From: Hypanus sabinus
Taxonomy: Eukaryota
NCBI RefSeq assembly: GCF_030144855.1
Contig: NC_082708.1
Span: 142,414,001-142,478,000 of the forward strand
Direction of reading: 5' to 3'
Length of the DNA: 64,000 nt
The translations under genes were made by a program, and so were the position numbers. This document shows, piece by piece, positions 3,461-58,395 of the stretch. Within the stretch, counting starts at the first letter, position 1, and the number at the start of each line of letters is the position of its first letter. A model generated the notes under the pieces. It worked only from the letters and a program-made list of their open reading frames with translations. It searched no databases and was not told the DNA's origin.

Positions 3461-5470
3461 GTTGACCAGAAGGTTGGTAAAATATCTGTAATTTACAGCG
3501 GAATTTTAAGTACGTGTAAGAAAAGATAGGCTTTTGTCCTTTTTCTGAAAATCTTTTCCCTAGACTTCCACTGTAGTTTAATTGGTTCTGAATTGAATCT
3601 TCATATTTCTTCCACTGAGGGGCAGAAGGGATCTGATGAGAGAGTTGTGAGCAGTTTGTAATGAGGTCTGTTCCTTCCGCTGCTTTGTGGCTGTCAATGC
3701 ATGGACTCTGGAATCTCAATGCCACCCCAAACACTGCTCCTTCTGGCCATGTGTTAGAGATTCCCAGGAGTCAGGAAGGATAATGCATTCCTTCATGATG
3801 ACTTTAAGCGTGCCCATGAATAATTTCCTCTATCCACCTGGTAATTTCTTTCTATGTGTAATGACGGTCTCAGTGCTCGGGATGTTGGCCAGGGAGAGGA
3901 CAAGAAATAGCAACCAAATCAGGGTTGCTGCCTCCAGCTTGACTGACCTAGATCCGCTTGCCGTGAAGTTGGAGAAACACCCTTGATTATACCTTTCCAG
4001 TGCTGATAATAACAGGATATGTAAACCCTAATTGCTGCTTCCCCATCCCACCCACCACCTATGCCACTGCTTCCAAATGGAGAACAAAATATTTTAGCAT
4101 GTCCACTGTATTAGTTTGACTCCATCAATAATTGGAAGTCCATATAGTTCAAATAATGGTTAGCTAAAAGAGGAGATTCTTTAACACAAACAATCATGAA
4201 GGCTTACCTTGTTTGAATATTAATGTTTAGCATCTACCAGTTTCAGATTATGTGGCTGATATTTGAATATTAGGCAGGCCAGCATCCAGGCTTCTCAATC
4301 TGCCAATTTCATGTTGTTCTTTCTATTTTTATGTGTCTGCTTCTCAGCATTACGTTTTTGTTTACTTTTCCTGGTTTTGTCTCTCATGTGGAATCTAGAA
4401 GTAGATAAGCATGCCAGTAAACTGGCTCAATGATTTTGTTCCCGGTGCTTACAACAATTCTTGTACAGAGTATCACTCTTATTTATATTTTTCTTTTGAC
4501 TTCAGATAATAGGTAGAAAGATGAAATATCTGTAAAAAGCAGAGAATCATAACACCTTGTAATTATGATGAAGCTTTTTTTATGGTTTATTATTTGAAGA
4601 CTCAAAGATCAGTATGTAACTTGATTAAAGTTACATACTGGAATTTTTTTCATCATATCTTAAAGAAATGGTAACTAAACCAGGGCTGCTGCCTACAGCT
4701 TCACTGACCCAGATTTGACCCCGACTTCTCTTTGCGACTGCCTTAGGTCCCACAACTATTTCAGTTTCCTCTCATATCCCAAAGGCAGGTTAAATCACCA
4801 CTGTAAATTAGTGTAGGTAAGTGCTAACAGCATCAAAGAGAAAGAAATAAGTTGTAGTGTTGCAAAAATAAAAAGGAAAGGAAGAATTGGACTGATAGGA
4901 CTGCTCCGTTGGTGGTATGCATGGATCTAGTGGGCTAAATATCCCTCCTGTGTCATAAACAGTTAAACTTACACAACAAAGCAAATAAAATCAGGGAACG
5001 ATTGTAAAGTGCATGAAAAATATTGGTAGAAATTACCACTGCATAGATCTTGTGCAGAATAAGTAACTTTGAATGAAAAATATCGTTGCCATACGATGGC
5101 AAATTGGATTAAAGAAAAGCAGATCTGATAGATGGAATTGAGGTAATATGCGCCATTAACAAGAGCCTGTTCTTCCTTCTAATCTCTAAACATATGGTCT
5201 ATGTATCCTAGCAGTTGAAGTACATTCGTCTTCCAAATTCTCTGATGAGCATCAAATTATCACAAACAATTTCTGAATATCAGGAAAAAAACAGCAATAT
5301 TTGAGTGATTTTAATTTTGTGTTTCACATTTTGTTCTGACAGAACTGTGAGGACAAATTTTGCAACCAGCCTTGTTTTACTTGTACTGATATTATGGCTA
5401 AATATGGTGTTTACCACAATGGACTGGTGTTGTGTTTGAACAATAATCATAAATCATTTCTTTTTAAAAG

Positions 5471-6208
5471 CTTACAGATAAAGAGAGTACTGAAGAGATG
5501 CTGAAAGGTAATGAAGGGATACTGAAAGGTAAACTCTGCCGCTTACAAAACCAATTGAGGATGAAGGTGGATGAAATGAATAAGCAGTCTGAATACTTTG
5601 AACACTACAAACAAAGGCAGCAACAGCTGACTATGAAGCTGAGAGAGCGCGAGCTGTCCTTGCAGAACCAACTCTTCAAACTGGAGAGAGAGAAAATTGA
5701 TTTAAGTGCCACCAGTATAGTCCTAAAAAGTGAGCTACACCAAGTCACTGCAAAGTTCACAAAGCTGGAGAAAGCACACATGAGGAGGAATAGAGATGGT
5801 TCAGAGCATGATACGGATCTCACCAACATGGGAAGCTGCCTATTGAGTGGAGAGGATCACATTAAAGAGCAGATTCTGGTCCTTCAGAATGACTTAAAGA
5901 GTCTTTTAGAAAAAGAAGCAGCAAATAACCAGGAAAGGGAGCAATTCCAAGAAAGACTTCAACAAGCTGAGGAAAACGAGAGCTTCCTGACACATAAACT
6001 AGAAGACTTCCGCTCACGTATCCACGAACTGAAGTTATCAGAGAGCAGCCTGCAAGAGCAAATCGAGGACCTGGAAGAAGAGAACGAGAAACTCAGAAAA
6101 GATCTGAAAGAAGTACAAGAACAAAAGAACTACCTGAATGTGCTGGACTTTGAAGAAAAGCTGGGGAATTTAGCGCAGGATGAGAGTACAGTGAATAAAA
6201 CCTCAATT
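5471..6208 (+). CDS. C4orf50: C4orf50-like coiled-coil protein, internal coding exon A (738 nt, phase 0-0)
   Basis: Acceptor tttctttttaaaag|CTT and donor ATT|gtaagt. Heptad-rich frame LTDKESTEEMLKG...LCRLQNQLRMKVDEMNKQSEYFEHYKQRQQQLTMKLRERELSLQNQLFKLERE...FRSRIHELKLSESSL. It resembles the recalled N-terminal region of mammalian C4orf50 (LRRLREQLRRK...QERVLRAQVQRLERD; RSRIQELELSE). Confidence 0.85.
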
Positions 6209-6509
6209 GTAAGTACCGTTGTTGCAAATTGTGAAAAGTCTTCACATGAGGTTTCTGTTTCCTGATTGCAATGTTTCACATGAAATTCTGTTAACTTTAA
6301 AAGAAGTCTTGACTCCGAAAAGTAGACTTATTTTTATGTTTCTTTCTATGTCTGATCTTTGGAGATTACTAATGATAGCTATGGTCCTCCTGTTGTTTAG
6401 AATTATCCTACCATTTGTTCATTAAGAATGTGAAGGAAGGTAGGAGAAGGAACAGAGGATGCAACAATTTAACTTCCAGCAGAATTTCAGAGTTAAAATT
6501 CAGAAGGAC

Positions 6510-7100
6510 AAGTTCAAGTTTATTATCATTTAACTGTATACATGTATACCACCAAATGATACAATGTTCCTCTGGACCAATGGGCACAATACAGTACATA
6601 TAACTCATATAATCACTTAAAGTAATATTCCCACAAATAAATAAATAAATAATAAAATATATTCCAGAATATTTACATTTAGTATAAGATGCATTTATGA
6701 CAAAAATTAAGAAGTAAATAGCGTAACTCTACTGGTGCTTCGTAAGTGATGAGACCTTGGTATTTGGGAGGGAGTTCAGTAGTCTCATGACCTTGGGAAA
6801 GAAGCTATTTCCCATCCTACCAACCCTTGTCCTGATGCTACACTACCTTCTGCCTGGTGTTTGGGGGTCAAAGACCTTATGGGACAAGTAGGGGGGGGGG
6901 GGAATTCTTGACAATGCTAAGGGCCCTGCATATGCAGTGCCCTTGATGAATATCTCAGGTGGGTAGAAGAGAGAGACCCCAAGGATCCTCTTGGTAGTCC
7001 TCAAATCCTTTGTAGGACCTTGTGGTTAGATACCTTGTAATTCCCATAACAGACAGTAAGACACCTAGTCAGAACATTCTCAATGCTGTTCCTGTAAGAA
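6510..7100 (-). mobile_element. Rex1/Babar-like LINE 3' fragment
   Basis: ttcaagtttattatcatt tail and aagaagctatttccc...ctaccttctgcc segment typical of this family. Confidence 0.45.
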
Positions 7101-10100
7101 TGGTGGTGGTGGGGGGGAGGGGGGGTCTCTTGCCTCAATCACCACAGGAAATGGAGATATTACGTGAGTTTTCCTGATCAAAGAGATAGTGTTGAAGGAC
7201 CAGATGAGATTGTGAGTAAGAATGTACATCAGATTCCGTTGAAGGTGGAGCATAGGGAGTGGGTACATGCGAAGTTCTGGGAGTGAGTGCAAAATATGAT
7301 CTGGCAGATCTTTAAGATTATGTACTTGAGTTGCTGAACTAATATGTAGTGAGAGTTGAATTACATTGCAGACTTAACCCCTGGAATAACTTAATATATG
7401 GGCCATAATAGTCTACAACCGTTTTGGGAAATTAGCTTCAAACGATGAGATTAGAAAGTTCTGTGGTCAGGTTTGCAGAGGAAGGGTTTGGGAGACGTGA
7501 GACTGCAGATGGTGGAAATCTGGAGCGATGCACAAAGCACTGGAGGAATTCAACGGGTCAGGAAGCATCCGTAGAGGATGATGCACAGCCAGTGTTTTGT
7601 ATCGAGATCCTTCATCTGGAGTGAGGTCATTCAGTTGATTGTCAACTGTCCATTTCACTCAATGGATGCTGCCTGACTACAGAGTTCATCCAACACTTTG
7701 TGTGCAGTGGCTTTGAGAGGTTGTCTTCCTGTGGTTTTGAGCCAGTAAAATTCTTTCTACCCATACATCAGTGAAGGAACTCATACTCTAGTTCTCACAT
7801 TGGCCAACACCGGAGGAGGTAGAATGAGCAGAGGGAGAGGAAATGGGAAGAGTCTTGCAGTTCAAAGCTGCTTCAAAGGAGAAAGAAACAAACTAGAAAG
7901 TATCCTTTCACTGAATGGTGCCTCTCCAAGTTATCAGGATGTGTTTGCTATGACCTTCTGCTTCAGCGGTTCACCAAGATTCGTGGTCACAATATGTCAC
8001 ATGGAGGCTCTGTTCTGGAGTTCTTTGTATTTTGGAGTAGAACAGTTTGTATATGTTCCTGCTTCTTTACTTGCTGTGGGGACAGGGCACGATCGGACTA
8101 TTTTTGAGTCCTTGGGGAAAAGAGAATGTCATTCATACTTTGTAGGAGGAGCTTTTGATTGGTGCCTCTTGGCATTACAGTGGGAATTAGATGGAGGTTC
8201 ATCTGTGAATGTTACATGTTAAGTTTGTGGTGCATTAGAGCAAACATGAGCTACCATATACTTACTTGCAGGGGAAAAATAGCTCCCCCCCCCACTATGT
8301 CATAAGGAAATATGGAATTCTGGAGTACAGTCACAGAGGGGGAGAGGGAAACAAAGACCCATGTAATCCTAAGGAGATTGTGAAAACACCTGTACTGTGC
8401 TGTAGTGTTCTACCACACAGACAGCACTCGATGCTAGGATGGAATCTAGGCCATTAGAATGAGGCAGCAGTTGACGGTAGGGGAGCTATCTTAGTGTGAG
8501 CTGGAAGCCAGAATGAGAGACACAATTTGTTTCCAACAGGGTTGTTGGAATTCTCAGAGGGGGGTGGGGGTTAAAGAAATAATTCTGGGAAAGAACATAG
8601 GACATTACAACCCAGTACAGGCTCTTTGACCCCAATGTTGTGCTGACCTTTTAATCTACTCTAAGATCAGTAGAGGGGAGGATAGGCAAGTTCCAAAAAT
8701 GATTCTGACTCAAAAGCTGAGGCTGAAAATTGAGGAGAATTTTAACAGGATGAATAAAAGAGCTTAGTTTGGAACAACAAATGAATGGCAGGCCATTCAA
8801 AGCTCTGTGAAGCTATCCTTAGTGCTTTGCACCGAAAGTGCTACAGATTATGTCGGAAGGATAGTATCAAGAGACGGTTTGGAACAGTGATACTCATCTC
8901 TGGTGGGAGAGGTTAAGGGGCCAATAAGGGCTAAGAACGTGAAAGCATTTGAACAATGGATACAAATCTAAGGTGAGGTACTGCCAGAGTGGGAATTCAA
9001 GGTGGATATTTCTGTCTCACATCAGAGAGTTATTCATTGTTTTAATCAGCAATGAAGAATGCCATAATGACCACTGGTATTGAGCTAGGGCTCCAAGATA
9101 TTCAGATATGGATGATACAGTTGTAATCTCTGTAAATGAGGGAATAACAATAGAAATTAAGAGTATAAAAGCCTGGGACTTCTGATCCCACACCAATATA
9201 AATGTCAGGATGCAACTGTGCTTCCCCGGTTTCTAGTGTTGGCGTGGGCCTGAGACAGATGCTGCATCTCCTATTGTGCGGCCAGTGCTGTTGAGCCCTT
9301 GCAGAGATCAATGCAGCAGCATAAACATCCTCAGGCCTCCCAGTTCTCAAGTAGACTGCTGATTCTGCATGTTTAGACCAAAGCCAAACACATAAGAAAA
9401 TAGAAGGAAGAGTAGGCCAGCAGGCTGCTCAAGTTGCCCCATCAGTCAATATATCATGGCTGATCTTTGCTGGCCTCAACCCCTCTTCTGTGCCAGTGTC
9501 CTAGTTCCCTTTATTCCTTGGCAGTCCTATTTCAGTTAACTCTGAGGCATCTTGGTTGGTGTGAACTGAAGGGCCATTCATGAACTGTACAACACCTTGA
9601 CCTTGGATGCCATGAAGGAGTTTTGTGTTTATTGATTTTTTTGATGGTTTCAATGTTTTTAATTCTTTTATATGGAGTTGCTGTGCAGCGCAGCTCAAAG
9701 GACCAGAAGGGGGCTATTCCACACTGTATCCCTAATATTCAAATAAAGTATTAATGAAGTAAGTAAATTTCTAGATATGTATTTAACAGGCTCCAAGATT
9801 TACTTGATTTTTTTTTTAAGGTCCTGTTATGGCTTTAATAGATAATGATCCTGAGCATGGGCCCTAACAGGCTGTAAAAATCATTGTATGAGAGCAGCTA
9901 GTCCCTTTCCCTGAGCTAGCACCTGCGATGCATTGGGCTACATTGAAATGCTGAGGTACCAGTGTTGGACCGCACTGAAACTTTGTGATTCCAGGCCAAT
10001 TGGTGATCTGCTCCTTAAATTGCTATTGCTGTATAATAAATTGAATTGTTCTTCTTGGCTCTGGGGAGGATGGCTTAAAAGCTGTAGTATTTAAATCATT

Positions 10101-16709: not shown

Positions 16710-16935
16710 AAACACGAGGAAATCTGCAGATGCTGGAAATTCAAACAACACACACAAAATGCTGGTGGAACACAGCAGGCCAGGCAGCATCTATAGAGAG
16801 AAGCACTGTCGACATTTCGGGCTGAGACCCTTCGTCAGGACGAAGGACAACGTCAGGAAGAAACATCGACAGCGCTTCTCCCTATAGATGCTGCCTGGCC
16901 TGCTGTGTTCCACCAGAATTTTGTGTGTGTTGTTT
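16710..16935. mobile_element. Penelope-derived fold-back element with roughly 75-bp inverted arms
   Basis: 16743-16818 is nearly the reverse complement of 16860-16935. The flanks ataagaaag and ataaggaaag look like an imperfect target duplication. Confidence 0.75.
16808..16841 (-). ncRNA. Minimal type I hammerhead ribozyme motif (Penelope-associated)
   Basis: Minus strand GTC-CTGACGA-A-GGGTCTCAGCCC-GAAA-TGTC-GAC: CUGANGA and GAAA core boxes, stem II GGG/CCC, stem I GUC/GAC and a GUC cleavage triplet. Confidence 0.65.
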
Positions 16936-23570: not shown

Positions 23571-25189
23571 TGCATATCAAATTATCAACCCTTTTTAGCC
23601 CCGGTTTCAATTTTATTTTCTAGCCATTTAAAAGTAACCAATGTTGAATTTACAGTTTAAATATTAAGAAGTAGTTATTGACATGAAATCTATTTTGTGT
23701 TGTACTACTCATCTAAAATACTGCTCCACTGAAGTCAATTGAATTTGAATTTCAGTCCAAGGCACAACCACTGCTGCACTGGTGTTTTGAAAAAGCAACT
23801 GAGAGGAATTTCCATGTGACCCTAACTCACACCAGTAATAATCCACAGCAATGGAGAAAGAGGTCTGATTATATGTTTTATCAGTGTTGCTTGGGAAATA
23901 AACATTAGCCAGAACTGTGATTGTCAAGATAAGCAGGTAAACCAGATGACCTTGAGATCTCCGTTGATTGCACTATGCCCGTGCTTATATATTTGAAATC
24001 AACTTGAAATGATGCACAGCGGATTTGGAAAATATAAAAACACTTATCATTGGCTTCTATCAAGATTTTGATGGTAGATTATTTCACTGTAAAATACAGA
24101 TGACTCTGGATGTTGTGCTCACAATTCAGATAAGATTTAACAAAACATTCCTTTATTGATACCCTGCTTGTTCAGGTTGTATCAGAAGCATGCAAAAACC
24201 ATAACTGAGTGATGACTTATTAACGTCAATAATTTATGCATGATAAAAAGAGAAAGTGAAAGAACAAGGCTGGAAAAGTGAGAGTAGACTCAGATGAGCT
24301 ATGTTCAGGAGTGGAGTCACAGAATCTGAAACAATTAAACAGAGAAGAATCAATATCTGAGCGGAAAAAAGTTACAATTTTGAAATGTTATTTCAATAAT
24401 AAATAAAGCATTACCTTAATGAGAATATGTTGAACTCCGTGGACCCTTGAGACCCTGAGTGGATGTAGCTGACTCTGAAGGACTTGTTAGCTGTTGCAAG
24501 ATATCCTGAAGTAGCTAGGGATAATGGCCCAAGCCATGGTTATTAAGCAAGAATGAGCAAGAATTTTTAGATGAAGTTAAATTTGGTTTGTCTTCTATAA
24601 TGCAGGTCATCAAATGCCACAAAGTATTAGCATGGAATAATCCAGCAACGGTGAATATTCTGTAATCCTACTACTATTTGTAAACAACAGGAAACATTTG
24701 TTTGCTCGAGCTATCCAGAAGAACCAGAATTGGAATCAAGTTCATCATAGCTGTTGCATATGATATAAAATGTGTTGATTTGCAGCACCCGTCATGTTAC
24801 CTGGTGAAAACTATGTACCTGCAATGGCAGACTTGCTAAGTAGGTCAAACAGTAGTCTGGAACTTGCACTAGATCATCTCATCATCACCTTATCCTCTTT
24901 TAGCAAAAGTGTCCATACCCAACACATTAACACATTCACATAACTTCTTAAAGCACAGCCCTCTTAAAAGATTGAAGCTCCTGCAAAATCGCTTCACCAA
25001 GTAGCGAAATACTTCAATCGATTCCCGCTTCTGCTGAAGGGTAGGATTAATTCAAACACCCTTCCAATACAGATTTAACAAACACATGACAGACTTAGCA
25101 CTTGTCTCTCTCTCTCTCCACATTTTTTTGAACTTAAATGATTCACATCTTATTACAGGGGATGGTGCAGGGTGAATGGCAACTCCCCT

Positions 25190-26413
25190 CCTTAGGAGAG
25201 TGGGCCAGGAAGCACAACCCACCATCTGCTGCTGAAGTTCCCTCCAAACCTCTTGCAGAGCATCCACTGAGAGATAAAGGGAACCCTGAGAGCAGAATGC
25301 AAGGGATCCGTTGGACAGAAGGAGCCTTTATCGGGGGAGGGCTTGGAGAACGACCCTTCTCTCTTAATGGTTTCCTTGCCTCGCTTCATCCGGCAGTACT
25401 CCCTCCACAGGGCATAGAGGGTGGGGGTGGAAACCCCAGTTACCTGCTCCCGCAGGACCCCGGCTCTGAGAAACACCAAAAACTTCTCCTTACAGGTTAT
25501 GCAGGGCCTTCCACTCCCATGCTGTCTGTCTAATTCGAGCACCCAATCACAGGGACCTTCCCCCACCTATACTATTCCCTTTAATTTTCTAATGTCTACA
25601 GTAACCCCTGTATCTAGTCTCATTAAGGGCTGCACCACTCCCTTTAAACTGAGAGCTGTTGCTTTAGGTAAATACTCCGCCATGGTCAAGGTGAGTCTAT
25701 GGCCCTTCAGTGGGTCACTGTCACCACCGTATACACCTGTGACCAGGGCCCTCTGGTGGAGGGCTTTGGACCATACCTCCACAGTGCCATTCCTCCCAGG
25801 GCTGCAAATCTCACTCAGAGAGTGAGAGATATCTTAACCACCACTGTCACTCTGTCCCGTATTGATTCATCAAGCCCATGGAAAGCAGGTGGCACGCTCA
25901 GGCCATTGTTAATCACGTGGTGGGATGACAAGTCCGCCCACCCCACCCAGGACACCCATCTCCCTGTTGGATGATCTTACTGCAGAGCTCCTCTCATCCC
26001 AGATCCTCAGCAACCACATGGACAGCAGCTCCCCTGGCTTCTGTCAATACTTGCCTCCCACCTCCACCCGTTCCTTAGCAGGGAGCTCGCTGGTGGTAGT
26101 CTTCTCAGCGAGACACAGTGTGTTATCCTCCCCAGGCCCCTCTCCCTCACACTGTTCCTCTCCCCCAGCCAGTTGCTCTTTCTTACACTGTTCCATAGAG
26201 GCTGGAGGGGCAGTGGCCCCCTTGCTGGGATTGGGATCGTGTAGCCAACTGTCTTTCCTGTACAGGTGCTGCTTCTGCACGCTTGCTATCTCTTCCTCTT
26301 TCTGTGAGATTGTCTTATACTGCTGCTTTTCGATGGCTGCTAGCACCCCTCCAGCTCCCCTTTGTCTTAGGGAACCCAATCTCATTAAAGACAGACACAA
26401 TGTGATGTTCCAT
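25190..26413 (-). pseudogene. gag: Decayed gag of a class III (ERV-S/ERV-L-like) endogenous retrovirus
   Basis: Minus-strand ELPAKERVEVGGKY*QKPGELLSMWLLRIWDERSSAVRSSNREMGVL, where the stop is a probable CGA>TGA change, and FLRAGVLREQVTGVSTPTLYALWREY. Both resemble recalled ERV-S/ERV-L Gag motifs (RQxPGExxxxWxLRxWD; LIRAGVDREKID...LLxLW). Confidence 0.7.
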
Positions 26414-26591
26414 TTTCACCCAGTGTGAGTTCAGCTTGTCTGAACAGTCTGTGGGTGTGGGTGTCCTGTAGCCTGCCAGTAGGTTGTGGGACTCCCAAAT
26501 CCTGCACTTCTCACACGGGGGGGGGGGGGGGGGGAGGTTGACTCTCTTATTTTTTCCTTCTTAAGATATTCATCCTCTGATCAATCACTGA

Positions 26592-26609
26592 ACCCTGCTT
26601 GCAGTGCCA
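26592..26609 (-). promoter_or_regulatory. Retroviral primer-binding site complementary to tRNA-Ser
   Basis: Plus strand 26590-26609 GAACCCTGCTTGCAGTGCCA matches the recalled vertebrate tRNA-Ser(TGA) 3' end GAACCCTGCTCGCTGCGCCA at 17/20; two mismatches are CpG-type. It lies 1 bp from a minus-strand CA LTR end and upstream of gag. Confidence 0.7.
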
Positions 26610-26610
26610 G

Positions 26611-27063
26611 TGAGTGGGGATAGAAGGCACCCACTACCAGTAAAAATAGGTTAACTATTTACCTACAAGACAAGACAGACACTAGACATTCAGTAAACTC
26701 TTCAAGTTACACTTGGTTACAAATACTCCTCTAAACTGAGCACCTGAAGTGACAGGACAAAGCAGACACTAAACATACACAGTGTAGGAAGTACTTATCT
26801 AAAGTGTGTGTCTGGGCCTTCTTTACTGCAGCACACCTCTGCTATTTAATGTTTCCACGGTGCCAGCTGCCCATGGTGCCCCTGAGGGTGGAAAGGGAGC
26901 CATGGTTTCCGCACGCTAGATTTAAACTCTCCCAGTGCCGTGACATCATCAGTTAAATAGCAGGTAGAGGGAGGGTCTGCAATGCTCCTTAAACAGGCCA
27001 ATACCTAGCTCGTGCAGTGGATTGGCTTTTGATGAATGAGTAAGATGGACACCTACTGCGACA
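26611..27063 (-). mobile_element. Probable 5' LTR of the ERV (outer boundary approximate)
   Basis: Abuts the PBS with a terminal CA. On the minus strand, CCAAT (about 27021-27025), TATA-like TTTAAA (about 26921) and ATTAAA (about 26845) occur in U3-R order. Confidence 0.5.
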
Positions 27064-28004
27064 GTTCCCTGGTGCAGAGTCCAGCAAGCTTCTGACTTAT
27101 AAACTAGACTACTGATGCTGAAATCTGAAGCAACGTTCAAGATGCTAAAGGAACTCAGCAGGTCGGGTTGCACCCATAGAGGATAATGTACAGTTGATAT
27201 TTTGGTTCAAGACTCTTCATTTCAATCCAAAATATTGGCTATCAGTTCCCTCGGTAAATGCTGCCTGACCAGTTGAGTTCCTCCAGTGTCTTGCGTATTG
27301 TTCTGGCTTTTATTGTTTGGATGTATGTTGCTAAGTTGGGGTTTGTAGGAGACGGTCACATCTGAGGAGAACCTAAGGATCTTTAGGTAAGCTAATCATT
27401 TCCTTCATTCTTCAAATATTTAAAAATACATCAATTTCTGATTTGAAATTAATCAGTACTGAGGCTCAACAACATTCCTAGTTGCAAAATTCTAAAGGTT
27501 CATCAGGTTCTGTCTAAACGATTTTCTCCATATTTCAGTCCTAAATGCCTACGCTTATTTGGAGACTGCAATCCTTGGGAACAATCACCTTCTCAAGCCC
27601 TTTATTTGTTTCAATGAGATATTAAGAATTGTTAGTCAAAAATCTAGAAACCTTGGTACAGGTCATATGTGCAATAGAAGTGTTAAGAAAGGCTACAGCA
27701 AGTAAGACTCATTGATAGCACTTGTCACCAATTAGGCAAAGAATCTATTTGGTGGTTATTAAACCTAAGAGATTAATAGAATTGATGTGAATTTCAATAA
27801 CAAACTTTCACAGCAGTCAAATTTCCATTTGAGTTAGTGTTATAGACATATAGATAAGTCCATAACACTAGTTCCAGGTTTCAGCTGCTTATGTATAAAG
27901 TTAATGTTATAAGTATGAAGCAAATTTTCCCAGGGAGCTGAGGGAGAAAGCCTCAGCCTGTGTTAATAACAATTGTTAAAATAATTATTTTGTTTCCCTT
28001 TTAG

Positions 28005-33440: not shown

Positions 33441-33573
33441 GTGAGGCAATGCATTATGAAAGTTTGTAGCTAACCTCTCCCAACCTTTACTCAGTAACTC
33501 CCATGTTGACAAAGACAACTAACTATCAATAAGAATTTGTTTTAACTGACTTAGATGTGTAAAGATACTTCAA

Positions 33574-36160
33574 GTGCCAGGCTTTAGATGTTTCAGAAAG
33601 GATAGGGAGGGAGGCAAAAGAGGTGAGGGTGTGGCACTGTTGATTGGAGATAGTGTCATGGCTGCAGAAAGAGAAGAAATCTTGGAGGTGTTGTCTATGG
33701 AGTCTCTGTGGGTGGAGGTTAGGAATAGGAAGGGGTCAATAACTCTACTGGGTGTTTTTTATAGACCACCCAGTACTAACAGGGACATGGAGGAGCAGAC
33801 AGGGAGACCGATTCTGGTAAGGAGTAATAATAAGAGGGTTGTTGTGGTGGGAGATTTTACTTTCCCAAATATTGATTGGCATCTCCCTAGAGCGAAGGTT
33901 TTAGATGGGGTGAAGTTTGTTAGGTGTGTTCAACAAGGTTTCTTGACACAATATGTAGATAAGCCTACAAGAGGAGAGGCTGTACTTGATATGGTATTGG
34001 GAAATGAACCTGGTCAGGTGTCAGGTCTCTCAGTGGGAGTGCATTTTGGAGATAGTGATCTCAGTTCTATCTCCTTTACCATAGCATTGGAGAGGGATAG
34101 GAAAAGACAAGTTAGGGAAACGCTTAATTGGAGTAAGGGGAAATATGAGGCTATCAGGCAGGAACCTGGAAGCATAAATTGGAAACAGATGTTTTCAGGG
34201 AAACTTAACAAAAAATGTGGAAATGTTCAGGGGATTTTGCATGGGGTTCTGAGTAGGTACGTTCCAATGAGACATGGAAAGGATGTTAGGGTACAAGATC
34301 TGTGGCACACAAAGGCTGTTGTAAATCTAGTCAAGAAGAAAAGAAAAGCGTATGAAAGTTTCAAAAAACTAGGTAATGATATGAATCTAAAAGATTATAA
34401 GGCTAGCAGGAAGGAGCTTAAGAATGAATTTAGGAGAGCCAGAAGGGGCCATGAGAAGGCCTTGGTGGACAGGATTAAGGAAAAACCCAAGGCATTCTAC
34501 AAGTATGTGAAGAGCAAGAGGATAAAATGTGAGAGAATAGGACCAATCAAGTGTGACAATGGAAAAGTGTGTATGGAACCGGAGGAAATAGCGGAGGTAT
34601 TTAATGAATATTTTGCTTCAGTATTCACTATGGAAAAAGATCTTGACGATTGTAGGGATGACTTGCAGTGGACTGAAAAGCTTGAGAATGTAGATATTAA
34701 GGAAGAGGATGTGCTGGAGCTTTTGGAAGGCATCAAGTTGGATACGTCACTGGGACCAAATGGGATTACCCCAGGCTACTGTGGGAAGTGAGGTAGGAGA
34801 TTGCTGAGCCTCTGGCAATGATGTTTGCATCATCAATGAGGACAGGAGAAGTTCCAGAGGATTCGAGGGTTGCAGATGTTGTTCCCTTAGTCAAGAAAGG
34901 GAGTAGGGATAGCCCAGGAAGTTATAGGCCAGTGAGTCTTACTTCAGTGGTTGGTAAGTTGATGGGGAAGATCCTGAGAGGCAGGTAAGGCATTTCATAA
35001 GGTACCCCATGCAAGGCTTATTGAGAAAATAAGGAGGCATAGGATCCAAGGGGCTATTGCTTTGTGGATCCAGAACTGGCTTGCCCACAGAAGGCAAAGA
35101 GTGGTTGTAGACGGGTCATATTCTGTGTGGAGGTTGGTGACCAGTGTTGTGCCTCAGGGATCTGTTCGGGGACCCCTACTCTTTGTGATTTTTATAAATG
35201 ACCTGGATGAGGAAGTGGAGGGATGGGTTAGTAAATTTGCTGATGACACAAAGGTTGGGTGTGTTGTGGATAGTATAGTATGGAGACTTGTCAGAGGTTA
35301 CAGCAGGACATTGATAGGATGCAAAACTGGGCTGAGAAGTGGCAGATGGAGATCAACCCAGATAAGTGTGAAGTGGTTCATTTTTGTTGGTCAAATATGA
35401 TGGCAGAATATATTATTAATGGTAAGACTCTTGGCAGTATGGAGGATCAGAGGGATCTTGGGGTCTGAGTCCATAGGGCACTCAAAGCTGCAGCACAGAT
35501 TGACTCTGTGGTTAAGAAGGCATACGGGTGCATTGGCCTTCATCAATCGTGGGATTGAGTTTAAGAGCGGAGAGGGAGTGTTGCAGCTATAAAGGACCCT
35601 GGTCAGACCCCACTTGGAATACTGTGCTCAATTCTGGTTGCCTCACTATAGGAAGGATGTGGAAACCATACAAAGGGTGCAGAGGAGATTTACAACGATG
35701 CTGCCTAGATTGGGGAGCATGCCTTATGAGAATAGGTTGAGTGAACTTGTCCTTTTCTTCTTGGAGCAACGTAGGATGAGAGGTGATTTGATAGAGGTAT
35801 ACAAGATAATGAGATGCATTGATCATGTGGATAGTCAGAGGCTTTTTTCCCCAGGGCTGAAGTGGTTAGCATGGTAGGGCATAGTTTTAAGGTGCTTGGA
35901 AATAGGTACAGAGGAGATGTCAGGGGTAATTTTTTTTATGCAGATTGTGGTGAGTGAGTGAAATGGGCTGTTGGTGGCCGTGGTGGAGGCGGAAACGATA
36001 GGGTCTTTTAAGAGACTCCTGGAAAAGTACATGAGCTTAGAAGAATAGAGGGCTATGGGTAAAGCTTAGGTAGTTCTAAGGTAGGGACATGTTCGGCACA
36101 GCTTTGTGGGCCGAAGGGCCTGTGTTGTGCTGTAGGTTTCCTATGTTTCTGTGTTTCTAT
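33574..36160 (+). mobile_element. CR1 LINE ORF2 (AP endonuclease plus RT), decayed, with an internal deletion near 34985
   Basis: APE motifs GVFYRPP, VVGDFTFPNIDW, PTRGEAVLDMVL and GDSD; RT motifs [12 protein letters not shown] and KFADDTK. The frame jumps from KILRGR directly to KAF.KVPH, so the QHGF-to-DF segment is missing. Confidence 0.9.
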
Positions 36161-40349: not shown

Positions 40350-41936
40350 GTCAGAACAGTCCTCCGGTTACCTGAAACACAAAGAGAACTGGGCAAGTTG
40401 TTGAGCCCTGAAGTAGGACGTTTTGTGTGTTGTGATCTATCTTCCCCTATGATTGAAAACCAAGAGACCAGGCAATCTAGAGATGGCCTAATAATGGTCA
40501 AGGAATCAGTAAGTGATGCTGCTATTCCCGAAGATACCATTACCATTGCATCACAGCCTGAACCTTTGGACCCTGGGAGCCAAGAAGTTGCAAAGTTGAA
40601 CTTACTAAGCATACCTGAGCTTGTGGATTGCAATGGCAGTGATGCAGCCAGTTGTACACTACCAAAGACCCCTTGCAGCATGAAAGGAGAATCTGTGAGT
40701 GGAGACACAAATGCTGTGACTAAAGAAGTCATTGCAAACCTCAAAGCTGAAGTAGGAGAGCTTCAGGAAGAGAAAGCAGAGATGGATCGTCGCCTGCAGT
40801 GTGTGAACAATCAGTTACTCGATTCAACTGAAGAGAAAAGAAGATTGGAAGATGAATTATATGTTGCAGGGAGAGAAGTGAACCATTTGGCTCAGAAACT
40901 TGAGGCATTGACAAAAGGGAAGATACAAGAAGAAGAATCAATGAAAAACAACTTGAGAAAAGAAAATGAGGTTTTGGAGAAGAGAAATAAAGAGCTTCTA
41001 AATGAGATTACAAAACTGCAAACCAGCCAGCAAGCAATGGAAACAGAGTTTGAACAAAAGAGGGAAGAATATTTGCAGAAAATATCTCAATTGAAAGATG
41101 ACAAGAAGAAGATGGAGGACAAGTTTAATTGCATGCAGCAAGAAAATGCAGAGAAACTAATAGAGTGTCATCAAAGTATTGAAACATTGAGCACAGAAAA
41201 TGGGGAAATGAAGGGAAGATTATCAGAACTTAAAACCAAGGATAAAATTCTTAATAATATGGTGACAGAACTGAAAGAGAAAGTTGAAAAGATGATGAAA
41301 GAAAATGAACACCTGCTTAACAAAATTGACAAAATGAAGAGTGAGAAGACAAATACGGTTCACGAAACAATACATCACTTAACAAAAGAGAATGAACATC
41401 TTTTAGGAAAAGTCAGAGAACTGGAAAATGAACTGGAGAATTATTCCACTGCGAATACTGCAGCACAATATAAAATAAATCAAATAGAAAATGCAAATAC
41501 CAATTTGATGAATGTGAAAGAAAATTTAATCAAAGAATCAAAAGTGCAAGGAGAAGGTGAAATAAATGAAAAGCCAGATGAGTTACAGAAAATGTCATCA
41601 CAGCAAAGTGATGTTTTATTACAAGAAGCTACTGGCTGTGAGAATGACAGGAAGATAATGTTAAAAGCCAAGAAGAGGAGGGAAGTGGAACAAAGCAAGA
41701 ATTCGATGGAACACCATGTTGAATTTAATGATGTATTGTCTGAGACATCTACAGTGAAAATCACTGGAAGATCTAATGAATACAAAACCTTGTCATCCAA
41801 AGAGAATGCAGAAGATGAAAGTCCACTCAGTGATGAAACAAGAATTGATGTCGAAGCATTTTTGGAAGAGATTGAGATGGTGAATGATGAGGCTTTAAAA
41901 ACCATTAATTGTTCTGACATATCAAGTTATTGGGAA
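40350..41936 (+). CDS. C4orf50: C4orf50-like large coiled-coil exon G (1587 nt, phase 0-0)
   Basis: Acceptor ttgtcttaaccctag|GTC is in frame with the 521-aa ORF 40398-41963, which is an E/K/Q-rich heptad sequence. The donor GAA|gtattg is moderate, so the 3' boundary is less certain. Confidence 0.85.
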
Positions 41937-41956
41937 GTATTGTTAAGGGAGGAAGA

Positions 41957-43608
41957 GCCATAGAACACTACAGCACTGTGCAGGCCCTTCAGCCCTCCAT
42001 GTTGTGCCGACCCATATCAGTTCAGTTCAGTTTCAGTTTATTGTCATTTAGAAACCACAAATGCAATGCAGTTAAAACAATGAGACAACGTTCCTCCAGA
42101 ATGATATCACAAAAGCACATGACAAAACAGACTACACCAGAAAATCCACGTAACGTTTGGCAATCCCCAATCCAGAGTCCGGAGAGGCTGCTGTGTATTA
42201 ATATCGCGCTACCATCTTAGCGCGTTCCCCGGAAAGGAGCTCCAATCCACCAGACAAAACAAGACTACCCAGACACACCAAGTCAGGAGACCAACTCTAG
42301 CACCCAACAAACCAAACACTAAAGCTACAAGACCGGCACAAAAGCACATAGTTACAACAGTGCAAACAATAGCATAATTAATAAAAAAAACAGACCATGG
42401 GCACAGTAAAAATAGTCCTTTAAGAAAAGTACTAGACCCACAGTACCCCATAACCCTCTATTTTTCTTTCATCCATGTGTCTGTCCAAGAGGCTCTTAAA
42501 TACCCCTAATGTTTTAGCCTCCACCACCATTCCTGGCAAGTCATTCCAGGCACTCACAACCCTCTGTGTAAAAAAACTTACCCCTGATGTCTCCCCTAAA
42601 CATCCCTCCCTTAATTTTTGTACATATGCTTGCTATTAAAATACATTGCTATATTTTAATAGGTGTTTGCTATTGGTGCCCTGGGAAACAGGTACTGACT
42701 ATCCACCTTATCTATGCCTCTCATGATCTTGTAGACCTCTATCAAGTCCCCTCTCATCCTTCTATGCTCCAAAGAGAAAAGTCCCAGCTCTGCTAACCTT
42801 GCTTCATATGACTCGTTCTCCAACCCAGGCAACATCCTGGTAGATCTCCTCTGCATCCTCTTCATAGCTTCCACATCCTTCCTATAATGAGGTGACCAGA
42901 ATTGAACACAATACTCCAAGTGTCTTCTCACCAGAGATTTGTAGAGTTACAACATGACCTCTCTACTCTTGAACTCAATCCCCCTGTTAATGAAGCCTAG
43001 CATCCCATAGGCCTTCTTAGCTACCCTATCAAACTGTGCAGAGACCATGAGGGATGTATGGATTTGAACCCCAAGGTCCCTTTGTTCATCCACACTCTTA
43101 AGTAACTGACTATTAATCCTGTACTCAGTCTTCTGGTTTGTCCTTCCAAAATGCATCACCTCACACTTGTCCAGATTGAACTTCACCTGCCATTTTTCTG
43201 CCCAACTCTGCAGCCTGTCTATATCCTCTTGTAACCTTTGACAATCTGCAGCTCCATCCACAACTCCTCCAATCTTCGTGTCATCCGCAAACTTACTCAC
43301 TCATCCTTCTGCCTCTACATCCAGGTCATTTATAAAAATCACAAATGGCAGGGGTTCCAGGACAGATCCCTGCGGCACTCCACTAGTTACCGACCTCCAG
43401 GCAAAATACTTTCCTTCCACAACTACCCTCTGCTTTCTTCCTTTAAGCCAATTTTTTATCCAAACTGCCAAGGTTCCACTTATCCCATGCCTCATGACTT
43501 TCTGGATGAGTCTCTCATGAGGGATCTTGTCAAATGCTTTGCTAAAGTCCATGTAGACCACATCCACTGCCCTACCCTCATCAATTTCTTTTGTTACCTC
43601 TAACATTT
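41957..43608 (-). mobile_element. CR1 LINE RT fragment with 10-bp TSD
   Basis: [35 protein letters not shown] and HLEYCVQFWSPH; GGGAGGAAGA at both 41947-41956 and 43609-43618. Confidence 0.9.
42020..42417 (-). mobile_element. Short retroposon 3' end with (CTGAA)n-like tail nested in the CR1 3' UTR
   Basis: gttcagttcagtttcagtttattg is a minus-strand AATAAA plus tandem tail; the CR1 UTR resumes after 42417. Confidence 0.6.
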
Positions 43609-44149: not shown

Positions 44150-46812
44150 GTACTTCTATGCCTTTTACCAGCCTCCTCAATTTATGGATAAGGTGATTCT
44201 GAATGGACGCTCTGCACAGAATTTATTTTATCATTTATTCTTCTGCAGAAATTTGCTTGCAGCCACTTGCTCTAGATTTAGTTCCACTGAGAACAATAAC
44301 CTGTATTTGGTGGGTGACTTGTGACATCTCCTGTCAGAAGTTCAGAGATATTTCTAGCTTTTGAGGGGGAGCATTGGTAGCCAGTCAAAATTTCTTCAGC
44401 TGCCTTTGTGAGTTGTGCCTCCACCATGGTATGGAGTACTTGATCTTGGTAGATTTGCACTCGTAAGTTCAGCCATCATGTACAAAACTGGAGTGAGCAC
44501 ACGTGTCTTGTCACCATCCACAAATTCTGGGCTAATGGTTTATCTTGCTCCTGGGTATTTTTTGCTGCTATCCTAAAAAGTTAACCTTTCCTCTGTACCA
44601 ACAACACGGGTTGTCTCGGGAGGCAAGGCAATGGTTTATTTTCAAAAACTTTAAAAAGGAGGAAAATAATCCACTGAGTATCATAGGGTCAAATATGTCA
44701 TTAAGGTTGTAAACAGTTAACTTAGTTTCAGATTGTTGTGGGATAGACGGATGGAGTGGATGGATAGAAATAAATTTTATGACAGAGACAGACAATGGCT
44801 AAGATCTTCTCAGTATTTTGTTTAAAAATTGCTGCTCATTTAGTATTGGATATTGGTCAAGTATTCTGTCAGTGCAGTGCAGTGGTGTTAGTGGCGTATG
44901 GCCCTTGGTGTGTGGAATCTGATGGCTGACTAGCAGTTTGGTAATGAAGAACAGGGGAGATCCTTGCAATAGTTCTCTCAATGGAGATCTTTGGTGGGGA
45001 TGTGGCTTTTCAGGGAAAATGGCACAGGCTCAAAAAGGGGAGATGGTGCAAGTGATTTGTGGCTGCAGCTGGATAGTGGATGGTGAATGAGGAAAGTGGT
45101 ATGGTCACGTGTTAAAGGCACAGCAAGGGGAAACATGCCATATGAGTTTGCTGTGCAAAAGAATCACAGTATGTACATTGATATACCGCGCATAGATACA
45201 TTGCAGTAAAACACAGAACACTCAGGCATATCTGACGAGGAGAGGACAGAGGAGCGTTACATAGTACCAAGAGGGAAGCTGGATAGCTGATACTTATACC
45301 ACATATACCTGTAGATACATTGCAGTAATGCACAGAATGCTCAGGGGTCACTCTGTTCCCGTGATGAAAGCATACCTGAAGAAGAGGCTGTTGCTGAGGA
45401 CACTTACACAGGTACCAAGAGGGAAGCTGGATAGGTGATACTCCAGTGGGAGTAAGCTGAGGAAGTAGGAGTTGAGCGTTATTGATAAAGGGAGCATGAA
45501 CAGTGTTTAGAGAGAAACTGGAGAAGGGCGTGCCTAACACTAGGGTATGGGGACATTACTTTAGCCCAGGGGGTCAGATATAGAGATGAAGCAGCAGAAG
45601 AAATTGCCAAGTAGTTTCATTCTCAGTGGCAAAGTCCACAAGATGCTTGCATGTTGGAACTGAGGATGGGGAAGCTTGGATTTAAGTCTGTATTCAGTAA
45701 AAGGTTGCTGGTTTATCTCTGGATTCTGCACTGTTACTGGAACACCCAGCTGCTTCATCAGATTAGACCAGGGCTTCACATGGCCCAGCCATATCTACTG
45801 ATGAATGTGTAGAATGATTATCCAGCATATTTATTCCAGATTGTATCCCTTGCATTTATAAAAACACAGATGGGCTGCATCATGTGGCATGGCTGAAGTG
45901 AGAAAGAGCACATGTATACTGGCAGTGAATGTGTGACTGAACTGCAGCCAGCTTCTAATTAAAACCCACTGGAAAGTTTGCATGGCCCCTTCTTTCAAAT
46001 GCAACCTCAGGTGTCTTTCCTTTTGCTTCTGCAAAACTAGTAATCTGTGCTGTCACTTTGGCTCTGGAATACTTTGCAGGCTTCTTCTCTCCTCCTGGCT
46101 GCTGAAAGCCTTTCACAAAAAAACAAGCTCTTGGGCAACTCAGTGATGGAGTTTGTCTGGCAATACTTCACCGATGAGCTGTGAAAGTTTTACTATATTG
46201 ACAACAGTAATATATACAAATAAAAATATATTTAAATGTTGTATACCTGAATCTATGCACCAAATACTAGAAGAGTCTTCATTTATTGGAGGCATCCCAG
46301 TTGAGACTAACTTTATGCTCTCCTGATATCTGTATGTGTGTGAATTCCAACAGGAGTTGTCGAATACCAGCGGTGAGTGTGATTGCATAGGATATGGTTT
46401 CTTAGCTGATTCTCCTGCTCCACATTTTATCATTTTTACATTTCACTCTACAAACCTGGGACATCTTGGTTTTTAAGGCTTAGTGAGACGTGAGACCTCA
46501 TCATTACCAACAGAACCATTGGCAAGGACCAGGAGGGAGAAAGTAGCTCATCATATGTAGTTTTGTATGCCAGAACACCAAGAGTCATTAGGGCAGGTGG
46601 ATCATCCTGTAGCATATGGACATTGCAAATGGTGCTGTTGAAATATGATTGGTATGAAGAATTTTATAATTTTTTTGTGGTCCGGCACATTAATCCTCGT
46701 TCACATATTTATTACTCTGAAATATAAAAAGCAAAAGAGAAAATATCTTGCCACATAGTACACACAGTAAATTTTGAGCTGAAGCAGAAATGTCTTCTGT
46801 GGTTGGTTCCAG

Positions 46813-46965
46813 GCCCAGAAATGGCATTCAGAGGCAGGGTTGGCAGAAGATAGATCTGAAAAGATCAAGCAAGACCTAACGCAAATTGTAATTGAGATGG
46901 AAAAGCTGCATAGAACCACAGAAGAACAAGGACCTCTGCAAATGCAAACTAAACTTATGGAAGAG
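46813..46965 (+). CDS. C4orf50: C4orf50-like exon J (153 nt, phase 0-0; AQKWHSEAGLAEDRSEKIKQDLTQIVIEMEKL...)
   Basis: Acceptor ttggttccag, donor GAG|gtaata. AQKW..E.G.AE.R resembles a motif I recall from tetrapod C4orf50. Confidence 0.8.
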
Positions 46966-47969
46966 GTAATACAAAATGGTTCATCTGTCAGTGAAGAAGT
47001 TCCTTCTACTGTTGCAACCTCTCTGAAGGTGGCTAGAAGATCAATTTACATGAACCATATTCCTATCTTAAAGGAAAGTCTTGGCCTTCATTTTAAAATA
47101 TATTCTGACAAGTTGTGAATTATATTATGGCCGCAATTAAATCTTTATGCGAGATAGATTGAGCCTTGGATTCTCACTTACAATTCTAAATGAGAAAAGA
47201 GTTTTGCCTCAAAATTGGATAGTGTGTACTATATTTCCATATACGATGAAATTTAATTTTGATGAAGTATTAAGCTGAAAAAGAAAACTTGCTGTGCTTA
47301 GCTGCAATAGTCTTTTCAGATTATGCATTTGACTTGCTAACACTTGGAGGACTCAGACATGTTTTGTACTTCATTGCAAACAATTTCATTTTACCTCAGT
47401 GGAACATGATATTGGATGACACTTATAGTTGTTTGCCCATTGCAATCAGTTCAATCAGGATGTCAACGGTTAAACCCAGGGGGATTTATCATGAGGCCTT
47501 CATAGTCTTGACATTCACATAGTTCAGTAGATTGCAATTCCGCAACAAACTGTGTAATTACTTTTTGTGCTATTCATTAATGCATATTTCTAGATTGAAC
47601 TACAGAAAGAGGGAAATAGTTTTATAAGGTATTACATTTGCTAATAACTAAGGTTTAATTTAAAAAATGCTAATAATCTCCCACTATCGTTTATTAAAAT
47701 GCAGGCGCCTGCTGTTTCCCACATTTAAGTCCCAGTTACTGTTGCAATAGTGCCCTCTATAGGGGACAAGTTCATTAGCAGCTGTGGGATATTCCAGTGC
47801 CTTTGTCAGGTGTAGGTTTCAATGTACTTCACACATTAAAATCCAGATTCATAGTTCACATTTTAAGTGCTGTTTGTAAAAACATGAGCAATAGAAACAT
47901 GAGTAGGTTATTGGGTCCCTCACACCCTGCTGCATCATTGTGGCTGATCTTTACTGGAGTGTCTTTTTA

Positions 47970-50760: not shown

Positions 50761-51778
50761 ATGATAAAATGTCGATTTGCCCTGTGACTTCCACAGACTT
50801 GCTGCTTTCATTACACAAGTTCACTTGTCTTCTAGGCGAAGACTCTTTCTCTCCCAGGGATCAAGTTTTTGGAGCTCCTGTTGGCATTTCAGTAGCTCTG
50901 GGAAGAGGTTGCTAGGCCCACGTCCTACCCTCCTCCTTTCTCGGCCAGGCTTGGGACTGTTCATAGCAGAACTAATCATTAGCAAAAAAAGATGTATTTA
51001 CATCATGGCTGCAGTTATGAGACAATTCATCCTGTAGAGGGAGCCACAAGGCCATTTTATGCACACGGACATAGAACAAATACTGTACATCCCTTGCATT
51101 ATATTGTATGTGCTTACCTTGTTGAAATGTATGTTTGTGCTTCATTGTGGTTGTGTAATTTGAGTGTGTGTGTGTGAGAGAGAGAGAGGACTGACTGTGT
51201 ATGTATTTGTAGTCCTTCTCCTGAAGTAAACTTCCCAGTCTGATTTTGACCATAAAACATGCAGTTGTTGAATGGTGAGACTATGGTTCATACCTATAAA
51301 CAAAAAAAGTGGATTTTTAAAATTAAATTGCATTAAAATGCACAATGACCTTTCAATGAATAGTTCAGTTCCAGGAATCTTTAATATTTGGTTAGAGATA
51401 ATCTAAATCTGTGTCTCATTCTTCAATATCTTTGCTTCCATTTTTAAACATTTGTGTAGATCAACTGTGGGTATCATTGGGAGAATGTGAATTTGTAATG
51501 TCACCTCAATAGACTTGTATTGTGAACTCATTATTTTGGCATAACCTAGAGTGCTTGCCATATGTGTCACTGTGGTCACTTCTGGATCACAATTTCAATA
51601 TGAAATTCAAGGCAGTTGAATTACTATCAAAGAAAATGTCTGTTTCAACAAGGAAGCCTTTCTGTACAGTGTTTTGTGATTAATTGGGAAACAGTGAAGG
51701 GGAAGACTGAGAATAATGCTTATTGCCAGTAAAGAAAAGGATGCAAGTTTCAACTCTAAATTGTCTACCCCCTTTCAG

Positions 51779-51955
51779 AGTGTTCCAGTGAAATCTATTG
51801 GCCAAAAAGCAGACTTCAGCTCAATTGACATTACAACTCTTCAGCAGCAGATTGTGACATTGAATTCCCAGCTTAAAGATCAGATTGCTTTGGAGAGGAA
51901 GCTTCAGGAATTGCAGTTTAAACTGGAACTCCTTCAGAACCAGCTTGACATAAAG
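51779..51955 (+). CDS. C4orf50: C4orf50-like exon K (177 nt, phase 0-0), start of the DUF4527-like region (ITTLQQQIVTLNSQLKDQ...)
   Basis: Acceptor ttgtctaccccctttcag, donor AAG|gtattc. LQQQIVTLNSQLKDQ matches the recalled DUF4527 motif LHRQVLTLQCQLRDQ. Confidence 0.85.
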
Positions 51956-52068
51956 GTATTCATGCCTAGAATGGGAGAGACTCTGCAGATGCTCGAAATC
52001 CGGAGTAACATACACAAAATGCTGGAGAGACTCAGCAGGTCAGGCAGCATATATAGAAAGAAATAAAC

Positions 52069-56690: not shown

Positions 56691-57351
56691 GTAGATTTGT
56701 ATCTATCTGTGTCTAAAGGAGTTAGAGGGCGCTTGACTGAGATAGACAAGGTCCTGAGCATCTTGACAGGGTGTGTATAACAGAATCTAGAACTAGAGAC
56801 ATGGCTGAAAAATAAAAGGCTGCTTTATTTTCTGAGAAGATCTTGAATCATAGGAAAACAAGTAAAACTGGAAATGCTTGAAATGGAAACAAGAACTGAA
56901 AATGTTGAGGACCTTAGTCAATCAAACAGCTGTTATGGAAAGACAAACATGCCAATACAACGGATCAAAGACCCTTCCTCAATACTGATCTTTGGAATTC
57001 TTTTCCTCAAAGGCTGATGGAAGCCGATTCATTTTTGAGGTAGCGTTAGAAAGATTCTTTATTTGCTAGGAGGTATAATGTTACCATGGGTATATTGATG
57101 TTTGTAGCTGTTGTTAAAGTTAAATCAATACAAATTATACAGCATTGGAGTGTGCCCTTTAACCCATGGTTTTCTGCTAACCATGATGCAAATATAATCG
57201 GAATCTGAATCAGCTTTAAGATCACTGGCATATGTTGTGAATTTTTGCTGTTATGTGGCTGCAGTACATTACAGCACATAATAATATAAAATGTAACTTA
57301 TAATAAATAAATATATACATATTTTAAAATTCAATTAAATAATTATTATTT

Positions 57352-58395
57352 ACCTGGATTATTGATTACCTGGCTGGCAGACCACAATACGTGCACTTGC
57401 AACACTGTGTGTCAGACAGAGTGGTCAGCAGCCCTGGGGCTCCACAGGGGACTATCCTGTCTCCATTTCTCTTCACCATCTACATCTTGGACTTCAACTA
57501 CTGCACAGAGTCTTACCATCTTCAGAAGTTTTCTGTTGACTCTGCCATAGTTGGATGCATCAGCAAGAGAGATGAGGCTGAGTATAGGGCTACGGTGGGA
57601 AACTTTGTCATGTGGTGTGAGCAGAATCATCTGCAGCTTAATGTGAAAAAGACTAAGGAGCTGGTAGTGGACCTGAGGAGGGCTATGCCACTGGTGACCC
57701 CTGTTTCCATCCAAGGGGCCAGTGTGCACATGGTGGAGGATTACAAATACCTGGTGATACGAATCGACAATAAACTGGACTGGTCAAAGAATACTGAGGT
57801 TGTCTACAAGAAGGGTCAGAGCCGTCTCTATTTCCTGAGGAGACTGAGGTCCTTTAACATCGGCTGGATGATGCTAAGGATGTTCTATGAGGCTGTGGTG
57901 GCCAGTGCTATCATGTTTGCTGTCGTGTGCTGGGGCAGCAGGCTGAGGGTAGCAGACACCAACAGAATCAACAAACTCATTCGCAAGGCCAGTGATGTTG
58001 TGGGGTTGGAACTGGACTCTCTGACTGGTGTCTGAAAAGAGGATGCTGGCCAAGTTGCATGCCATCTTGGACAATGACTCCCATCCATTCCATAATGTAC
58101 TGGTTAGGCACAGGAGTACATTCAGCCAGAGACTCATTCCACCGAGATGTAACACTGAGCATCATAGGAAGTCATTCCTGCCTGCGGCCATCAAACTTTA
58201 CAACACCCCCCTCAGAGTGTCAGACACCCTGAGCCAATAGGCTGGTCCTGGACTTATTTTCACTTGGCATGATTCACTTATTATTATTTAATTAATTACG
58301 GTTTTATATTGCTATATTTCTTCACTATTCTTGGTTGGCACAGCTGTAACGAAACCCAATTTCCCTCGGGATCAATAAAGTATGTCTGTCTGTCT
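57352..58395 (+). mobile_element. Relatively young Rex1 LINE 3' fragment nested in an opposite-strand Rex1/Babar-like copy (about 57205-59050)
   Basis: 214-aa ORF with GAPQGTILSPFLFTIY, HLQKFSVDSAIVG and KKGQSRLYFLRRLRSFN; AATAAA plus a (GTCT)n tail; the host element continues on both sides. Confidence 0.9.

Follow-up and report, generated by a model that had tools for sequence, protein, structure and literature searches.

The minus strand of a 64,000 nucleotide stretch of the Hypanus sabinus genome (contig NC_082708.1, positions 142,414,001 to 142,478,000; hereafter the window) carries the remains of an endogenous retrovirus (ERV). The original prediction described these as a deep-branching class III element related to ERV-S, primed by tRNA-Ser and ending at 25190. 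This raises the question of what kind of element is present, where its lineage belongs among the class III ERVs, and how it came to be without pol. The locus is very probably a dead, 3'-truncated copy of an old, many-copy class III ERV family, belonging to a pol-less offshoot of that family that likely spread in trans. Membership of this offshoot is what is new; it was overlooked in the original prediction. The features of the locus are as follows.

26611..27063, minus strand: 5' LTR (TGT ... CA), recognised from its genomic copies and present at both ends of siblings
26592..26609, minus strand: tRNA-Ser primer binding site (PBS), 16/18 and 18/20 against the host tRNA-Ser gene 3' end plus CCA
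25192..26573, minus strand: decayed class III gag, with ATG at 26573 and stop at 25194-25192
25990..26049, minus strand: capsid major homology region (MHR) with an in-frame stop inside, from a by-hand alignment with Fig. S6 of PMC8278194
25405..25473, minus strand: C-terminal Gag motif named in the original prediction, which aligns with its counterpart in class III Gags from the database
24918..25180, minus strand: first ~260 nt of a non-coding filler that replaces pro-pol; the element breaks off at about 24918

The element at the locus

On the minus strand, the LTR starts with TGT at 27063 and ends with CA at 26611; in the siblings the LTR ends are ACA. What had been described as an LTR-like segment is a dispersed repeat, with 39 non-self genome matches at 70-79% identity among the 40 scored out of 437 first-look candidates. 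Other genomic copies are therefore many, and siblings often carry paired LTRs. A very high-copy short repeat adjoins the LTR at window positions 27130-27300. Positions 16743-16935, 33550-35400 and 57343-58035 hold an inverted pair of this LTR-adjacent repeat together with LINE-like fragments, family names having been assigned by eye.

One spacer base lies between the LTR end and the PBS start at 26609. The PBS matches the commoner host tRNA-Ser 3' end at 18/20 and the rarer one at 17/20; the two positions at which the better match fails are CpG-to-CpA changes. The best other sites in the rest of the window reach 14/20 and 15/20, which upholds the predicted tRNA-Ser PBS at this site. As an exact pattern, the LTR end plus PBS has 30 matches in the genome, compared with none for a control pattern. 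Host tRNA-Ser genes were retrieved by a 3'-end pattern with 53 matches; of the six checked, five were called Ser and one was called Arg. These matches are mostly on small contigs, which suggests tRNA gene arrays. HERV-S primes with tRNA-Ser, a primer that the ray family therefore shares with it.

The segment behind the PBS that had been taken for a C-rich leader is really the 5' end of gag, because an ATG with a basic N-terminus is present at 26573, 36 nt past the PBS start. Such an ATG with a basic N-terminus at PBS+36/37 is found in 5 of the 11 family copies checked, window included, and the N-terminus resembles that of the stingray protein P0066. From 26415 on, the main frame of the window gag is interrupted by six stops; there are also frameshifts, and about 270-300 nt are missing near 26290-26245 relative to the siblings. 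Both peptide motifs named in the original prediction are present, in one frame. By-hand alignment of the MHR with the sequences in the available part of PMC8278194 gives 11/20 identities with HERV-S, 10/20 with MuERV-L, 10/20 with HERV-L, 9/20 with XtERV-S and 6/20 with AKV-MLV. The window and family gag contain no CCHC motif (Cys-His box), so that an ERV-L-type Gag, the MHR and the lack of a Cys-His box, as in class III Gags, are found together.

Read through as a single query, the window gag found nothing in PDB or Pfam and had no match among 4594 candidates in a word-indexed protein search; none of the decayed family pieces reached the Pfam cut-off. A Gag profile built from 20 single-frame pieces of the window and its siblings matched 36 proteins at E<=0.001; seven of these were looked up, and those with a name come from two turtles, an owl and a possum. 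The best match, P0009, aligns with the window at E 7.6e-13 (tblastn), and the window gag also matches the stingray Gag-Pol P0066 (tblastn). The profile matches and an MHR nearest to class III Gags confirm the class III identity of the gag. Sibling and protein comparisons identified neither pol nor env nor a 3' LTR in the window, as had been reported, but the element does not end at 25190: family homology continues to ~24918.

Plus-strand coiled-coil ORFs at window positions 5468-6265, 40350-41963, 46783-47118 and 51698-52066 are probably exons of one host gene. They have a weak match to DUF4527 (Pfam, E 4e-5, below the cut-off), a domain linked to C4orf50. The element appears to lie in a host intron, antisense to the coiled-coil ORFs that flank it. 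Part of the window stretch is present in nine runs of six organisms. Contigs cover the locus in 4/4 other organisms compared, at about 2-8% difference, with three bridging the 3' break and three bridging the 5' LTR edge. The insertion is common to all four and its ends are bridged, therefore insertion and truncation predate the splits between these organisms.

Family layout and phylogeny

Twenty siblings were picked by gag similarity. Their LTR pairs are often 3-7 kb apart, and translations and motif scans identify protease, RT (HYIDD), RNase H, integrase and an env TM with CX6CC. The YIDD catalytic motif is present as HYIDD in sibling L053 and is degenerate in others. Searched against Pfam, nine decayed pol/env frames gave one integrase match, below threshold, and a PDB search with the RT profile gave no match. 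The parent layout is LTR-PBS(Ser)-gag-pro-RT-RH-IN-env-LTR, with a gamma-type env. No tblastn match to the dUTPase part of P0003 was found in 32 family and 16 sister-family loci, all of which are decayed. From its sequences the layout reads as ERV-S-like, with a Ser PBS and an env but without a dUTPase, the latter as the lack of a tblastn match in decayed copies. The arrangement of ERV-L proper, with a dUTPase after IN and no env, is not what is found.

The LTR pairs of the family differ by K2P distances of 0.20-0.33 (12 pairs), with a non-CpG divergence of 0.18-0.29 (6 pairs). The catshark rate used in the available text of PMC10699275 converts the non-CpG divergence to 180-290 Myr, and the rate in that of PMC4422223 to over 400 Myr. 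No date in years is given because the published shark rates yield 180 to over 400 Myr; dating was dropped on this ground, none of the rates in the available texts being from rays.

A younger sister class III family is present in the same genome (L084-L099, from a protein search of the genome). It also has a Ser PBS, and its LTR pairs have K2P distances of 0.05-0.14 (3 pairs). The sister-family env is of gamma type, with CWIC, furin, ISD and CX6CC features. A 5-bp target site duplication (TSD) was seen in two copies, in the sister family only. The Hemitrygon protein P0070 nests inside this family.

For phylogeny, the RT-tether of individual copies, with X at breaks, was placed among 32 database Pols chosen by hand from profile and protein search matches. 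Seven of the 37 genome read-throughs (L048, L056, L061, L062, L090, L091 and L097) were left out for low score or partial cover. FastTree was run on 62 rows, IQ-TREE on 32 rows with a shortened search, and AU tests on 21 rows, 11 more having been dropped. All RT rows were anchored on P0062, the basal place of which may be biased. P0074 was assigned as XtERV-S and P0061 as MuERV-L by motif offsets compared with Table 2 in the available part of PMC8278194. The outgroups were one Gypsy-like and two other retroviral sequences, one of them MLV-like.

The RT-profile matches are ERV-L-type Pols, and the family RT is 37-49% identical to ERV-L-type Pol despite its decay. In IQ-TREE, the family and its sister family group together with a UFBoot of 100, are joined by two Hemitrygon akajei proteins at 94, and fall inside class III, which as a whole has 92. 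FastTree and the AU-test tree set give the same groups. The backbone is weak, with a UFBoot of 65 for the ray clade plus the MuERV-L group. On these RT sequences the family sits in a stingray clade among the class III ERVs, apart from Gypsy and class I; the window copy itself is without RT. The stingray relatives point to a host of chondrichthyan type, as had been predicted. Origin of the family from Gypsy or epsilon elements is ruled out by the RT trees, and the expectation that the siblings' RT would be of class III is borne out by the UFBoot of 92. Elsewhere in the host genome, L100 is an MLV-like (class I) RT, and the RT of L102 is about equally distant from those of MLV and foamy virus.

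The Pols of white shark (Carcharodon, P0079) and killifish (Nothobranchius, P0007) are sisters with a UFBoot of 100, apart from the ray clade. A host switch between shark and teleost is a possible source of this pairing. At least two unrelated ERV-L/S-type lineages are present in cartilaginous fish, which favours host switching over simple co-divergence.

The filler-bearing offshoot

Element parts were mapped on 40 loci, selected by gag, by filler or by the filler piece of the window. The filler starts ~10 nt behind the gag stop in 10/10 filler copies, on different contigs, when aligned with five pol-bearing copies. The 20 gag-selected siblings divide into 10 with pieces of pol and/or env but no filler, nine with filler, and one with neither. 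The nine with filler have no pol or env-SU match, and in four of them the filler runs into the env tail and 3' LTR. Likewise, 0/11 filler-selected loci have a pol or env match, while 7/11 end in the env tail and LTR; the other four have no gag or LTR within 9 kb. The filler piece of the window has 39 non-self matches among the matches listed, all within 25118-24916. Of nine loci selected by this piece, six continue into env, two of them through the integrase end. These mixed filler endings show that the offshoot exists in two forms, a long one with gag only and a short one with gag + env. Three of the four best filler matches of the window go on into env, which suggests that its copy is of the short form, cut inside the filler.

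The filler has a GC content of 0.38-0.42, compared with 0.52 in gag. Counting a stop as shared when present in half of the copies (13 copies in the filler set), the longest run without shared stops in the filler reaches 62 codons in sense and 80 in antisense, compared with 245 in gag and 220 in env. Nine filler frames had no match in Pfam. First-look candidates in the genome searches, which are not copy numbers, amounted to 1512 with filler as query, 212 with gag and 179 with pol. The gag tree is star-like, with end branches of about 0.2 and most forks unresolved, and filler- and pol-bearing copies are intermixed on it, with seven changes. For this mixing to arise, either the tree lacks signal or recombination happened more than once. 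No filler-bearing copy has an established TSD.

Several other features were seen in the filler. A splice-acceptor-like site, with a branch-point-like TTAAT, a pyrimidine tract and CAG, is present at window positions 25050-25034 (minus strand). It recurs in other filler copies and could serve env in the gag + filler + env subtype. In the filler-bearing copy L045 a Gypsy-like element is inserted (oriented positions 3696-7911), which has 215-nt LTRs that are 99.5% identical, opposite-strand CCHC and same-strand pol motifs. In sibling L042 the filler is interrupted, at about 3700-5400 of the oriented sequence, by an insertion that has an RNase H-like frame.

It is proposed that a single recombination swapped pol, and in the long form also most of env, for foreign non-coding DNA. 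The pol-less recombinant would then have been copied in trans by the RT and integrase of complete relatives during the burst of the family; with pol absent and filler in its place, the copies likely spread by borrowed enzymes. The gag was probably kept whole either for packaging signals inside it or for the help of cis-made Gag in packaging. Packaging signals would fall inside gag because the leader is only about 18 nt. After insertion antisense to the probable host gene, the 3' half of the window copy would have been lost and the rest left to neutral decay; the copy is without a function today.

The MaLR elements of mammals offer a parallel. The balance tips slightly towards rays having evolved a MaLR of their own, in which pol was exchanged for foreign DNA behind the gag stop, and the derivatives with gag only or with gag + env were then mobilised in trans, perhaps to numbers above those of the autonomous parent. 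If this is true, the MaLR path was taken a second time, independently and outside mammals, and the 18-nt leader would suggest that elements of this kind keep gag for a packaging signal that it contains.

The original prediction offered a different significance, in which the element is a deep-branching relative of amniote ERV-S that would bear on the age of this lineage and of its primer usage. In its full form, this reading makes the element a sister of ERV-S that co-diverged with its hosts, so that the lineage, with Ser as its primer, would be as old as the jawed vertebrates. The Ser PBS, the env and the lack of a dUTPase match agree with the ERV-S description in the available part of PMC8278194, the MHR is nearest to that of HERV-S (by one residue), the copies are very old, and a tree with the ray clade as the deepest class III branch was not rejected (p-AU 0.118). 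That tree is not the best one, however; in the best trees the ray clade falls within class III, on a weak backbone, and the description as deep-branching is not sustained. A single clade of the ray lineage and the white shark Pol was rejected (p-AU 0.0002), P0079 grouping with killifish instead. Chondrichthyan class III ERVs are thus not one clade, and a whale-shark ERV is already in the supplement of PMC6001957 as available, both of which speak against the proposed bearing on the age of the lineage. Host switching is frequent and cartilaginous-fish ERVs are scattered according to the available text of Xu et al. (PMC6001957), and primer use changes easily, as in a bullfrog relative of XtERV-S that is described, in the text available, as using Leu. 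Descent of this kind is therefore considered unlikely.

It is less likely still that the filler is an unrelated repeat, inserted behind gag independently or by chance, and that the window holds a truncated ordinary provirus. The mixing of filler and pol copies on the gag tree, the excess of filler among first-look candidates and the 4/11 filler-selected loci that lack gag or LTR nearby would fit such a repeat. Against it are the single junction in all ten copies, the fact that pol is absent rather than displaced, and the continuation of the filler into the env tail and 3' LTR in both the filler-selected and the gag-selected sets. Least probable of all, and by a wide margin improbable, is a co-option of the gag or LTR by the host, as an Fv1-like restriction factor or a regulatory element. 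The locus is retained in related species, and among the predicted structures of the Atlas the Fv1 cluster comes nearest to the homologue P0009 (TM 0.50 by target, 0.36 by query). The window gag, on the other hand, is interrupted along its whole length by stops, one of them in the MHR, and by frameshifts, has lost a segment, and in the farthest run it differs no less than the flank (44/700 compared with 26/429). In the nearest run it has 17/829 differences, compared with 36/1068 and 16/741 in the flanks, and is below one flank only. Gag diverges about like its flank, therefore co-option is unlikely. The derivation from a pol-less recombinant is the reading that is retained.

Comparison with known elements

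Class III ERVs in cartilaginous fish are not new. In the available parts of PMC6001957 (Xu et al., 2018), class III lies within a clade that is represented in every major group of vertebrates, and the whale-shark element rh_ty_ERV3 (S2 Fig, S2 Data), a chondrichthyan ERV with the same Gag motifs by eye, is listed beside a killifish ERV, HERV-L, MuERV-L and HERV-S, in the order of labels rather than of a drawn tree. This label order suggests that rh_ty_ERV3 belongs, like P0079, with the killifish lineage and not the ray clade. SnRV- and epsilon-like ERVs have been reported in the elephant shark (Han 2015), and ERVs with gamma-type env in six cartilaginous fish (10.1101/2021.11.23.469661), which, from the part available, may include the ray family. 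Among the closest known relatives are the Hemitrygon akajei proteins P0066 and P0070 (NCBI), which lie in the same RT clade as the ray family (UFBoot 94) and carry no annotation beyond that of uncharacterized proteins; of the two, P0070 is a member of the younger sister family. The available parts of PMC10435555, PMC8672886 and 10.1101/2025.06.08.657570 contain nothing specific to the ray family. No description of the family or of a MaLR-like element in fish was found in the literature searched, which lay outside subscription journals and Repbase/Dfam.

As described in the available part of PMC8278194, HERV-S/ERV-S is like the ray family in its class III Gag MHR (11/20), in having an env and in having no identifiable dUTPase. 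The ray family differs in its host and in its large pol-less offshoot, and the likeness is known from layout and MHR, not from RT. XtERV-S of Xenopus tropicalis, in the same source, shares the class III gag-pol, Ser PBS, basic Gag N-terminus and a gag stop directly before pro, and has in common with the ray sister family a gamma-type env with CWIC and CX6CC and a 5-bp TSD. It differs in having a dUTPase-like segment, intact ORFs and a separate RT clade. Many XtERV-S copies are internally deleted, as in the ray family, but these keep only the 5' end of gag, unlike the filler copies. The ray family extends the ERV-S-type layout, with a Ser primer, class III gag-pol, a gamma-type env and no dUTPase match, to rays.

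The ERVL-MaLRs are described in the available text of PMC11359688 as pol- and env-less elements with ERV-L gag homology that are thought to spread in trans. Like the ray offshoot they are derived from class III, keep gag-related sequence without pol, and are very abundant and non-autonomous; the offshoot thus works in the MaLR way, having been amplified with its gag kept and pol absent. It is not a MaLR by descent, as it derives from the ray family and has its own LTR. The ERVL-MaLRs of that text are eutherian and without env, whereas the ray offshoot is independent in origin, keeps the env tail or env, and carries foreign filler. The locus itself is a neutral fossil, and the offshoot is the part worth a second look. 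If borne out across the whole genome, it would be a MaLR-like element that arose by convergence outside mammals, and would offer a natural test of the reason for which gag is retained in non-autonomous class III elements.
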